DNA of 18,156 nucleotides from a virus (lineage: Duplodnaviria > Heunggongvirae > Uroviricota > Caudoviricetes): IMG/VR virus record IMGVR_UViG_2671180637_000029; one strand, 5' to 3'. This document shows, in pieces, positions 6,001-9,000 of the stretch. A program made the position numbers. Numbering within the stretch: the stretch's first letter is position 1; the number at the start of each line of letters is the position of its first letter.

Positions 6001-9000
6001 TCGGCATCGATAAAGCAGCGGGTGCCTTCATCTGCAAGATCTTTAGAATAACGGGTAAAGTCATCGATGCTGGCAGTGGAAAGCGCACCACGGAAACGGA
6101 AGCGATTTAAATTAAATTTTTCCAGATCATGAATGCGGAAATTCTCAGGCAATGCCACAGCATCGGCACCAATCTTACTGATAATTTCATTAACACCCTG
6201 AGCAGAAATAAGGGCATGGATTTGATTAATTGCGGTTGCGTCTAAGTTCTGAGACATAATAAGTCCTCACTATATAAAGATATTCAGTGATGAGATAAAT
6301 AATCAGTTAATTAAGAACGATATTAATGACCTGCTGCGCGGAGTTTTCCGTCAGGTTCACCGGCAAGAGTCAGTAATTGTCCCTGGTCTTCCTGCAGAAT
6401 AGTCAGACGACCACCGCGATTGACATACATCGGCGTTTCGGTGGTGTCTTCTTCGGAAATTTTCCCGCGGTTAGTCGGGCGAACATATGAGAGTTTGTGT
6501 TTTATTTTCACACGGTTCTCATCAAACGGTTCGATTTCCAGGTTGAGCGAGACCTTACCTTTGGTTTTCGTGTTCATCACACCGGAAGCGACTTCACTGA
6601 GAACTGCGCCGATTTTGGTTTCAAATACGCCGCCGTCCAGCTCCCCGATAAATGCCTGCACATCAGTACTGCGTTCGCTAGCCATTTTGCTGCTCCTCAT
6701 CATATCGACCCTGCAAGGTCGGTTGGTTTCTCCACAAAACAGAGAAGAACACCTGCGGTGGCAGCCGCCCGGATGGATTGGGTTATGAGCCCGTCGTCCG
6801 GTGATGCTCTTCTCTGTTTTGTAAAAAGGACGGTACCAGCCGGAAGCAAGGATACAAGCTGATACCGCCAAGACTACACACAGCATAAAGTTGTGGTGCC
6901 GGGTGCCTCCCGGTGCCTGGCGAAGGTTGCACACCAGGCGGGTGGGTATCCACAGAAGGTCGACTGTCAGCCTCAACCTTAACCCGCGTGCGCTGAGCCG
7001 CATTCACCACAACGCTAAGGATTCTTTTTGGTTGAAAATACTTAGCTGTTATGTGCCTGTCTTTTCACCACTTCAGGCTCGGTGGTATCTTGGTGTTTTC
7101 ATATAGCCAAGAAGGAAATAGTTATGACCAAAGAAGAAAAATTCTTTATTTATTCCAACTATCGGTTAAGACTCGCACTGCATATCAGACTGCTGCCATG
7201 ACATCAGATAAAAATTACAGTACGTCAGAAAACCCGATAGACGACATAAGCAAGCTTTACGATAGTTCGAAGCACTACTCGATAAAAAGTTTGCTGAGGC
7301 TGGGCTTGAGTGATTGTTGAATAATCGACAAAACCCAACTTAAATTTTCGTCAGTGGGCTCGATGCCATGTGCGGTGAGCTCACTTTTCAAAACTCCAAG
7401 CAATTCAGAGCTGATTTTCAATATATCTGCTTGAGTTCTAACTATTCCCACTTTTTCCTCCCTTGGTCTACGCGCGGTCATGTTTTACGCCCAAACGACT
7501 TCACAGTTATTGTTTAAAATCTGGACTTTCATTTTGTTCTTTAACCTCCAGATTTCAGCGTATCTAAAGGCGCATTCTCATTTGGTGTGAACCGAATAGT
7601 TGTGCTGATATTGATTAATGCCCCGACACACAAGACTACGCACTCAGAGCAGATAGCAACTTCATCTTTTCCGCCTTTGGCGATGATTTTTTTTGCCTGC
7701 AGCTCGTTTGCGCCACAAAACGAGCATGTGAAATAACTGTTCATTTGTGCTCTCTTACACATAGTATTTAACGAATCATCCGGTCATTCATACGCCACCG
7801 GCGGCTACTTCGTGGGCGTCCTGCCTGTTCGTTACTGCAACATCTTTAAGTTGTAATCTAGTTGTTGTTTTGGTTGTTGTCAACAACTTTATGTGGTTTT
7901 GACGGATGTGAAATGAGGGCAAGGGTTATCAAAAAAGGAGGTTGTATGGACGATGCGCTTTTAATTACACAAGGGACACTTTCCTTCCGTGATTGGAAAC
8001 TCTCAAATCACGGGAGGAAGATTGAAAAGGCGGGTAATAATGGTAACTAAATTTCTGAAGGAAGGTTTTTTGATGCATTACCAAGTGCGCGATGACCAGA
8101 ATACTCTACCTATAACGTGAATTCTGGAACGCCTATCTTCGAAGGTGAGTATTTCATCTGGATACTCATCTTTATTGAAACTTCTTAGAATCAGACCACC
8201 GTCAGGTAAATTGATCAATATTTTAACTCTAAGTAATACGCCATCACGTATGGCATAAAGATCCCCATCACGAATAGGAACCGTTTGGGAAACATCAACA
8301 GCAACAAAATCTCCATTGTTAAGTACAGGTAGTAAACTATTGCCCCAAATTTTTACGATCTTTGCATTGGAGACACATACACCAGCTTTTCTTAAATCAA
8401 TCCTTCTTAGCGGGAACCAGTCTACAGTTGATTCAACTATTTCAGCCAAACATCCATTACCCGCTGATAACTCGACATCTAGGACTGGAATGTTTGCAAA
8501 AATGTCAGGATCTAATGCTGTACTTTCAGCCTCCTTTACAACAAGGTCTGGGAAAGACGCGTTATCCTCAATTCCCAATTGCAACCACTTTTGAGAAACC
8601 CCTAACACTTTAGCAATCTCTTTAATTTTCCGAGGCTGTTGAGTTTCTCCATTCTCGATTTTCGCTACGGATTGTTGTGAAAGCCCAATTTTTTCAGCTA
8701 GTTGCGCCTGACTCATTCCTGCTTTTTCTCTTTCGCTTTTTAGTCTTTCTGCCAATGTTTTCACAACATATCCCCCTCGTTTTTATTGAGGTTACAACTT
8801 TATGTTTTAGCTTTCCAACATCTAAAAGTTGTGATAAAAGTTGTTGTAGTTGTATAATCGAAGTTATCAACAACTTTACTACTTACAGATAGGAGAAAGC
8901 TATGACACCTGAGCAATTAGCCTTATCAGAGGCAATCGCTCTGGCTGGTGGTCAATCAGAATTGGCTCGGAAGCTCACAGCCAGCAGTGGTCGTTTAGTA

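Follow-up and report, generated by a model that had tools for sequence, protein, structure and literature searches.

What is encoded by a segment of a phage early operon that holds no evident protein gene and carries a long perfect inverted repeat? The question is raised by positions 6686–7274 of the virus record IMGVR_UViG_2671180637_000029, the whole 18,156 nucleotides of which were analyzed and are referred to here as the window, a lambdoid Escherichia coli prophage of the SfII/SfV/mEp460-like type. The original prediction, made from the sequence alone, had described this interval as a GC-rich non-coding island within the leftward early operon and had proposed a structured RNA, a small RNA, a processing or antitermination site, a retron-like RNA or a protein-binding site. 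The analysis suggests that the island is an RNA-gene segment of the early-left unit, made up of a small RNA and a following four-helix element, named T, whose outer helix serves as an RNase III stalk, and this is considered on balance probable. The structured RNA, small RNA and processing-site proposals were largely right. Part of the island belongs to a kind of small RNA that has already been published, and the inverted repeat belongs to an apparently undescribed and very widespread element.

Inverted repeat and coding potential of the island

The inverted repeat was found exactly as described, with arms at 6734–6748 and 6808–6822 and a spacer of 59 nt. At 15 bp it is the longest perfect inverted repeat in the window for loops of up to 100 nt, the runners-up being 13 bp, and it was matched by none of 200 dinucleotide-preserving shuffles, the best of which gave 14 bp, once. 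On the minus strand, with G-U pairs allowed, it grows to a 20-bp helix (6803–6822 with 6734–6753). The high GC content holds for 6690–7020 only (0.568, against 0.478 for the whole window); 7021–7274 is AT-rich (0.378), and the entire interval has a value of 0.484. The sequences reported nearby as GC-rich direct repeats, CCGGGTGCC and CCCGGTGCC (6899–6918), are present but are the two arms of one 5-bp minus-strand hairpin, CCGGG-AGGCA-CCCGG, and fall within a 22-nt exact match to the window's own copy of STnc100. The bounds of the island also required adjustment, with the ATG of yfdP lying at 6685–6683 and not at 6686, and the right part being occupied by a plus-strand gene remnant (7125–7313). 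The island and the inverted repeat are kept as a unit in related prophages.

It had been stated that no convincing open reading frame (ORF) covers the island, which is right in substance. Formally, the frame is open from 7003 to the yfdP ATG, giving a 226-codon ORF (6323–7003) that is an upstream extension of yfdP, but this fails a coding test in which codon-position mismatches and gap lengths were compared with Salmonella phage ST64B (78% identity). Mismatches in the in-frame extension (7003–6687) numbered 22/26/25 by codon position, with gaps of 1, 1 and 20 nt, whereas the control, yfdP against sb37 of ST64B, showed a coding signature of 25/34/77 with gaps of 3 and 12 nt. A protein product of the minus strand, either a long form of YfdP (ORF 6323–7003) or a hypothetical protein of the SfII_35 type, would fit the open frame and the existing annotations: 6700–7010 is a "frameshifted" hypothetical protein in the PGAP annotation of every relative inspected (L001, L003 and L004) and a pseudogene in many RefSeq genomes, and in SfII (L002) a coding sequence of 113 amino acids (aa), SfII_35, lies over the RNA island. 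Such a product is nevertheless extremely improbable. There is no third-position excess, no Pfam family was matched, and the length of T in relatives (100, 101, 102, 104, 108, 119, 123, 126 and 127 nt) does not vary in multiples of three. In addition, the same bases make covarying RNA helices (see below), and the CPS-53 prophage of strain K-12 (L249 7248–7604) keeps yfdP–yfdT and lacks the whole island, its homology to the window starting approximately 20 nt upstream of the yfdP ATG. The protein-coding reading was rejected on the codon-position test and the covarying helices. The island is non-coding, and the PGAP pseudogene and SfII_35 look like spurious protein calls over RNA.

A small RNA of the sRNA-17 kind

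Judged by sequence, positions 7014 to 6823 of the minus strand appear to encode a small RNA some 192 nt long, a variant within the sRNA-17 kind that is related to STnc100/PasD and DicF. It comprises a structured 5′ domain (M), a single-stranded linker and a DicF-like hairpin (D; Table 1), and the predicted minus-strand fold of the island has a z-score of −5.0. sRNA-17 was described in E. coli K1 strain RS218 as a 193-nt RNA of an mEp460-like prophage, with its ends obtained by 5′/3′ rapid amplification of cDNA ends (RACE) and its presence seen by Northern blot (PMC7719688). With the sequence of phage mEp460 as a stand-in for the RS218 prophage, the full-length sRNA-17 primers listed in supplementary file 4 of that article map to 1856–2048 of the mEp460 locus (L253), an interval of 193 nt bounded by CGTTGTGGTGAATGC and the U-tract of the D hairpin, with T beginning at 2050. 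The reverse complement of the "Full length" forward primer, the design of which was RACE-based, ends in this U-tract. In the window, CGTTGTGGTGAATGC forms the 5′ motif of M (7014–7000). From D to the yfdP start (6871–6690) the window is 96.7% identical to mEp460, and both megablast and blastn align mEp460 only from D onward (query position 180). The RNA is regarded as a variant member of the kind because the 5′ motif is shared and this identity holds from D onward while the interior differs.

Both RNAs occupy the same place between the repressor/pL region and yfdP, have the 5′ motif CGUUGUGGUGAAUGC and a near-identical DicF-like terminator hairpin, are of almost the same length (193 nt and about 192 nt) and are directly followed by T. 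They differ in the interior of the 5′ domain and in the linker, or seed, which is AGCCACUGCUUUGGCGG in mEp460 and UGCUGUGUGUAGUCUUGGCGG in the window. Deletion of sRNA-17 was accompanied by a rise in yfdP reads of approximately 95-fold, and an Rfam search in that study found no homologue of the RNA (PMC7719688). The available portions of the article mention neither T nor links to STnc100 and DicF.

Domain M is closed by pairing of GUUGUGGUG (7013–7005) with CACCACAAC (6898–6890), and its last hairpin, CCGGG-AGGCA-CCCGG, lies at 6913–6899. The closing helix covaries, with five pairs changed on both sides among 12 sequences, and is the only part of the domain supported by RNAalifold, the interior aligning poorly. 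An Rfam scan at gathering thresholds gave nothing in the island; a permissive search gave two leads. One was STnc100 (RF02076), with 39.2 bits (E 8.8e-7; gathering score 47) on 7031–6820 of the minus strand and model positions 1–206 aligned, accompanied by the 22-nt exact match (6915–6894) to the window's bona fide STnc100 copy. STnc100 and PasD share with M a closing helix starting UGGUGAAU, hairpins in the interior and, with 22 nt identical, the terminal hairpin CACCGGGAGGCACCCGGCACCA, after which come a linker and an intrinsic terminator; the closing helix of STnc100, its GGUGAAU and its terminal hairpin CCGGGAGGCACCCGG are likewise present in M. In contrast, STnc100 and PasD have their place in the late region, close to Q and the lysis genes, rather than between pL and yfdP in the early-left operon, their linker and terminator are unrelated to those of the window, and the score of the early-left copy is below the gathering score. 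Both have been reported as Hfq-dependent base-pairing small RNAs. M-like cores were also found in the Qin prophage after dicF (34.4 bits), in the ban operon of phage P1 (33.4 bits) and in the early-left leaders of ST64B and phiES15.

The linker contains a conserved 16-mer, UGCUGUGUGUAGUCUU, which the predicted fold leaves without a partner. An identical or almost identical copy stands between M and the terminator in ST64B, phiES15 and loci of Citrobacter, Mixta and Buttiauxella, and the 16-mer is a likely candidate for the seed of the small RNA. Within the window, a search for a target of this putative seed matched only the element itself.

D, in which GGCGGUAUCAGC pairs with GCUGGUACCGUC, is judged from its sequence to be an intrinsic terminator and would provide the 3′ end of the small RNA. 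It was the second lead of the permissive search, with 26.4 bits to DicF (RF00039) on 6882–6828 (E 0.0025; gathering score 48), and shares UUGGCGGUAUCAG with dicF of K-12, which itself scores 76.7 bits in a like search. In both cases a small RNA that contains UUGGCGGUAUCAG and finishes in a hairpin and a U-tract lies inside the early-left operon of a lambdoid prophage. The window lacks the 5′ seed of DicF, UUUCUGGUGACG, and has UGCUGUGUGUAGUC instead, and the 5′ 14 positions of the DicF model are not conserved; relatives of the Kosakonia type keep CUGGUAGUUUUUGGCGG. The same permissive search on eight diverged loci (60 kb) recovered neither STnc100 nor DicF, and the DicF likeness of the hairpins at those loci therefore rests on inspection. 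The statement that no standard feature type explains the island was mistaken for the left two-thirds of its GC-rich part, where an sRNA-17 homologue with sub-threshold matches to STnc100 and DicF is found.

The four-helix element T

Directly downstream of D stands T, in which the inverted repeat extends to the 20-bp helix P1 and encloses helices P2, P3 and P4 (Table 1). A search of IMG/VR and of species-representative genomes with an exact pattern of the T core yielded 35 distinct sequences of classes A and B from E. coli, Citrobacter, Enterobacter, Kosakonia, Mixta, Buttiauxella and other hosts. Most of what the genome-wide scan with this pattern returned was either a chance match within coding sequence or a true tRNA-Met gene from another phylum; the matches were sorted by eye, and only about 25 Enterobacterales loci were usable.

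Covariation supports the four helices. Among 21 distinct Enterobacterales sequences, 94.5% of the cells were paired, compared with 38–53% when the partners were slid, and nine pairs had changed on both sides; none of 500 shuffles reached the observed values. G-U pairs account for 46 of 714 cells. On the opposite strand these would be A-C mismatches, so the fold belongs to the minus-strand RNA. Taken with the absence of a coding signature, the covarying helices bear out a structured non-coding RNA on the transcribed strand. A covariance model of T (R1) gave 113.8 bits for the window and 82.3 bits for ST64B, and in phage P1 it picked up weaker copies whose loops read UUCAUAU and GUCAUAU. The single-sequence fold of T has a z-score of −7.3, and the same architecture was obtained on folding ten sequences whose outer stems are unrelated. 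No Rfam family was matched by T, which is apparently an undescribed RNA element.

Directly 3′ of helix P1 stands a conserved tail, GGAGAAACCAACC, which is kept in the 35 distinct sequences of classes A and B; immediately beyond it, homology to the alternative downstream genes is lost. In the predicted fold, GGAGA of the tail would pair with the U-tract of the terminator and lengthen helix P1 to 25 bp. A small hairpin is predicted in the yfdP 5′ untranslated region, and by inspection relatives have hairpins of other sequence at this site (6706–6721), such as GCCCC-UAC-GGGGC and GGCGG...CCGCC.

Likeness to the initiator tRNA and distribution of T

The tip of T, CGGGCUCAUAACCC, is identical in 14 of 14 bases to the anticodon stem-loop of the K-12 initiator tRNA gene metZ, and folds, as an initiator-type anticodon arm does, into a 3-bp stem of three G-C pairs with a 7-nt loop. 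The likeness to the initiator tRNA (metZ/W/V and metY) is limited to these consecutive bases with their CAU loop: T has no cloverleaf, D arm or T arm, and classes A and B have no CCA end. No tRNA was called in the window by ARAGORN, and the Rfam tRNA model had no match in 6500–7600 at E values up to 10; class C was not called as a tRNA either.

T was found in 2490 of 5426 complete E. coli genomes (approximately 46%), with up to five copies per genome, and at 99% identity or more in 2038 of 2498 E. coli records. It is annotated as RNA in none of the genomes that carry it. An element present in nearly half of the complete E. coli genomes is often mis-annotated as a frameshifted hypothetical protein, and its recognition would correct thousands of annotations.

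Across classes A to D, phage P1 and an Acidobacteriaceae contig, the core sequence is kept while helices P1, P2 and P4 differ completely. In class C, from Klebsiella phages, the same core has an outer stem of 6–7 bp and an NCCA tail in 14 of 15 distinct sequences. The core stands at the end of a tRNA array, with a tRNA gene ending 6 nt upstream in 14 of 16 loci; in phage RCIP0034 (L007 2506–2580) the array lies just downstream of Q. Compared with the initiator tRNA, class C carries NCCA, but its structure is limited to an acceptor-like stem, a long anticodon arm and one more hairpin. Phage phi80, considered because of a known small RNA processed by RNase P, was not among the class C matches. 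It should also be noted that this tRNA-like gene, seen at L007 and 14 other Klebsiella phage loci with a CAU loop, an NCCA tail and no D arm, goes undetected by tRNA finders. The C4 antisense RNA of phages P1 and P7 and other RNase P-processed phage small RNAs offer a comparison. Class C resembles C4 in its paired 5′ and 3′ ends followed by CCA and in its internal hairpin loops, but there was no Rfam match to C4, and a search of the window for a C4-type site complementary to the T loop returned only the element itself.

In the Acidobacteriaceae metagenome-assembled genome (L203 2545–2627), an intergenic hairpin carries the same 21-nt core, GACGGGCUCAUAACCCAAUCC, on stems of 9 bp and 10 bp unrelated in sequence to the enterobacterial stems. 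A similar but simpler hairpin is present on a Bacteroidota contig (L183). The literature searched held nothing relevant on a tRNA mimic or tRNA-like element linked to DicF or prophages.

Proposed processing of the transcript

RNase III stalks, as in rRNA precursors, the early mRNA sites of phage T7 and the lambda N leader, are helices of about two turns made by the sequences on either side of a structured RNA, between the functional units of a polycistronic transcript. Helix P1 of T is comparable, being uninterrupted over 20 bp (25 bp as predicted with the tail), with about 20 bp or more being the substrate criterion; it differs in that the enclosed core is a conserved tRNA-like hairpin instead of an rRNA or mRNA leader, and cleavage at T would follow by analogy. 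The inverted repeat is most plausibly such a processing helix.

A precedent is DicF of the Qin prophage. According to published work, RNase III generates the 3′ end of the 72-nt form of this RNA as well as the 5′ end of a 190-nt precursor. By arithmetic from the gel-reported RNA sizes, these ends correspond to positions 2954 and 2746 of the Qin locus (L005), and each falls within a long helix of 19 to approximately 23 bp that encloses a module (L005 2672–2760 and 2944–3092). The second helix closes the STnc100-like core (34.4 bits) between dicF and dicB. A long helix follows directly on the terminator at both loci, 19 bp after dicF in Qin, where it holds the published RNase III 3′ end, and the 20-bp helix P1 in the window. 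The two loci differ in that the STnc100-like core lies after dicF in Qin and before D in the window, and in that Qin is without T (no R1 match). Since the Qin ends lie inside long helices and helix P1 stands right after a terminator, it is suspected that RNase III cuts read-through transcripts at helix P1.

In a lysogen, transcription would probably stop at the D terminator, and in this way yfdP–yfdQ–yfdR would probably be kept silent. During lytic growth, RNA polymerase would read through D, and RNase III would most likely cut the long helix P1 on the read-through transcripts. This cut could provide an alternative 3′ end for the small RNA, free the yfdP mRNA and release the tRNA-like core, of about 45–65 nt, as a separate small RNA. 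In class C, the core would be released by tRNA-processing enzymes instead. The conservation of the core argues that it does something sequence-specific. What the sequences show is a non-coding island, helices that exist and covary, and the homologies and distribution described above; that RNase III cuts at T, that the core is set free and that it has an activity of its own are inferred.

sRNA-17, STnc100/PasD and DicF are linked by shared modules enclosed by long helices. These RNAs are treated separately in their literature, the available portions of which do not draw the links among them. The shared long-helix modules, together with their coincidence with the RNase III sites of Qin, suggest a common route of small-RNA production in antiterminated phage operons.

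Several points weigh against the proposed arrangement of a small RNA and T with helix P1 as an RNase III stalk. The 5′ domain is unlike that of sRNA-17, the matches to STnc100 and DicF are both below their gathering scores, and for this exact variant the small RNA is predicted from sequence. The de-repression of yfdP in the sRNA-17 deletion concerns low counts (0.5 vs 47; PMC7719688), and the replacement cassette itself could have caused the rise. RNase III cleavage at T is argued by analogy, the mapping of the Qin ends depends on gel-reported sizes, and a helix P1 that serves for processing only leaves the strong conservation of the inner core unexplained. The invariance of the core in the alignment is itself partly circular because the loci were fetched with the exact core pattern, and rare "anticodon" variants exist (UAU, AAU, CCU and CGU), with position 36 unchanged in all. 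The copies with variant loops (L255, L258/L261, L259, L262–L264 and L265) are otherwise intact.

Alternative explanations

The conservation of the core could be accounted for if T acted in trans as a mimic or decoy of the initiator tRNA anticodon arm, with the outer helix serving only to excise the core, although this is doubted. Such a decoy would titrate a factor that recognizes tRNA-fMet, such as a VapC-type anticodon nuclease or some other defence aimed at tRNAs; MetRS, IF3 and the 30S P site are possible further candidates. The anticodon loop of tRNA-fMet is where VapC toxins of enteric bacteria cut, and phages counter tRNA-targeting defences with tRNAs of their own. In favor of this are the 14 nt identical to metZ, which cover the three G-C pairs and the loop CUCAUAA, the retention of the core where helices P1, P2 and P4 have changed wholly (classes A to D, phage P1 and the Acidobacteriaceae contig) and its occurrence in two release contexts, a long helix and a tRNA array with NCCA. 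However, the role would rest on sequence likeness, and the likeness of the anticodon stem covers 3 bp, the next two positions being paired in the tRNA and mismatched in T. The loop is closed by G-U in class C and reads CUCAUUA in ST64B and UUCAUAU or GUCAUAU in phage P1, and the four rare variants occur in otherwise intact elements. The broader proposal, that T represents a new class of phage small RNA in the form of a free-standing initiator-tRNA anticodon arm that acts in trans as a decoy or competitor for a tRNA-fMet-recognizing factor, is unlikely to the same degree, and the same low expectation applies to its excision by RNase III in the prophages of E. coli, Shigella and Salmonella and by tRNA-processing enzymes in Klebsiella phages. 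The exact initiator-tRNA anticodon arm, kept amid change and in two processing contexts, is a directly testable lead for tRNA mimicry in the conflict between phage and host. It is rather unlikely that T is instead without present function, hitch-hiking beside the small-RNA terminator as a recombination scar or as the decaying remains of a tRNA-Met-like gene from a phage. Class C copies do look like the last, aberrant member of a tRNA array, tRNA detectors reject T and the anticodon variants exist, but the compensatory changes in three helices imply selection on the fold. Against a relic there are also the high identity of T (at least 99% in 2038 of 2498 E. coli records), the presence of as many as five copies in one genome and the retention of the core in distant hosts with wholly different flanking helices.

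A further possibility concerns M, alone or with T, as a cis-acting RNA for processive antitermination in the manner of HK022 put, which would allow the following and later early-left terminators to be read through. M-type modules lie in repressor-controlled early operons (the window, the ST64B pL leader without a prior ORF, phiES15 upstream of kil, the phage P1 ban operon and Qin dicB), the strong intrinsic terminators after M must be read through for the downstream genes, and no N-like protein was recognized in the operon. With HK022 put it shares a structured RNA in an early-operon leader upstream of terminators. M-type modules are, in addition, present in late operons, as STnc100. This reading is judged improbable: a blastn comparison of the island with the HK022 pL–nun region, the putL part of which was also read directly, gave no significant similarity, on which account an identity with put was rejected, and the RS218 homologue ends at its own terminator and accumulates as a 193-nt RNA (PMC7719688). 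In the available data of that study, deletion of sRNA-17 raises downstream expression, which is the opposite of what a constitutive antiterminator would give. The Qin module, moreover, lies after the dicF terminator, and STnc100 and PasD are reported as base-pairing small RNAs dependent on Hfq. Extremely improbable, finally, is an element at the level of DNA or of retron type, in which the repeat would be a palindrome bound by protein, a tRNA fragment like that of an attP site or the a1/a2 pair of a retron non-coding RNA. In its favor are palindromic arms that match perfectly over 15 bp, a spacer rich in GC and the 14-mer derived from a tRNA, but the G-U pairs and compensatory changes point to the RNA of one strand. 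attP cores run to the 3′ end of a tRNA, whereas the identity here is to the anticodon arm only, and in SfII the int gene is more than 1.5 kb away. Pfam found no reverse transcriptase domain in 20 ORFs of the window (nearly all of those of at least 100 aa and all of at least 150 aa), and Rfam gave no match to a retron msr at E values up to 10. On these grounds the retron and DNA-site readings put forward originally were rejected.

Operon context and related loci

The order on the minus strand is repressor, pL-like promoter, zinc-finger ORF, 68-aa ORF, island, yfdP, yfdQ and yfdR (Table 1). Leftward transcription probably starts at the pL-like promoter, a consensus match that lies downstream of the cI-like repressor gene. 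The ClpX-type zinc-finger gene is the first after this promoter, which is the position of lambda N, and no N-like protein was recognized among the operon proteins with Pfam or PHROG.

Table 1. Coordinates of the RNA features and neighboring genes in the window.
Feature	Position	Strand	Evidence or remarks
M, structured 5′ domain	6890–7014	minus	9-bp closing helix around five hairpins
Single-stranded linker	6870–6889	minus	16-mer UGCUGUGUGUAGUCUU at 6885–6870
D, DicF-like 12-bp hairpin, then C and UUUUU	6823–6869	minus	GGCGGUAUCAGC pairs with GCUGGUACCGUC
T, four-helix element, 89 nt	6734–6822	minus	covariation, covariance model, fold
T helix P1, 20 bp (the inverted repeat, extended)	6822–6803 with 6753–6734	minus	
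T helix P2	6801–6795 with 6775–6769	minus	
T helix P3	GGG (6792–6790) with CCC (6782–6780)	minus	loop CUCAUAA (6789–6783)
T helix P4	6768–6765 with 6758–6755	minus	
Conserved tail GGAGAAACCAACC	6721–6733	minus	directly 3′ of helix P1
Small hairpin CGACC-UUGCAG-GGUCG, yfdP 5′ untranslated region	6706–6721	minus	predicted fold
yfdP	6323–6698	minus	Shine-Dalgarno GAGGAG 6698–6693, ATG 6685–6683, stop 6325–6323
63-aa gene remnant, WP_000159356 / SfII_36, phrog_2605	7125–7313	plus	PHROG E 1.4e-33
68-aa ORF	7275–7481	minus	
ClpX-type C4 zinc-finger protein, 73 aa, phrog_5259	7541–7762	minus	PHROG match
pL-like promoter	7855–7883	minus	TTGACA, 17-nt spacer, TAGATT; consensus scan, consensus match only
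cI-like repressor gene	8078–8764	minus	Pfam HTH_3 and Peptidase_S24

yfdP is the first protein-coding gene 3′ of the RNA cluster; it matches phrog_204 and is labelled YfdP by PGAP in relatives. The phrog_2605 gene on the plus strand is intact, with 63 aa, in SfII and TW10722 (by translation of the intact relative), and alignment with these showed that it is broken in the window by two 1-nt deletions, one of which falls within a run of A residues. At its 3′ end the gene overlaps, in convergent orientation, the 68-aa ORF of the minus strand. The leftward operon also encodes a 3′–5′ exoribonuclease of the Rv2179c-like family (1327–1902, minus strand; Pfam E 2.3e-75).

At the ST64B locus (L250 2045–2860), about 800 nt without a convincing ORF lie between the repressor gene and the yfdP homologue. 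At least two hairpins of terminator type are seen in this stretch, and no gene resembling N. In phage P1, small cores, each closed off by a long stem, follow one another along the leader of the ban operon (L008 1480–2630); one has a T-arm-like hairpin, GGGUUCGAAUCCC, two have CAU loops, and they alternate with modules of the GUGGUGAAUGC type. They adjoin an annotated "dicF-like region" and three tRNA genes. The minus-strand genes plp and upl are annotated over these cores and may accordingly be doubtful as genes. If T were indeed a decoy of the initiator tRNA, this leader would be a larger battery of tRNA-part-like cores of the same kind.

The bona fide STnc100 of the window (146.2 bits) is located at 16270–16460 on the plus strand, approximately 1.5 kb downstream of the Q gene (14041–14793). 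It is directly adjoined by the anti-GcvB small RNA AgvB at 16461–16522 on the minus strand (96.5 bits).

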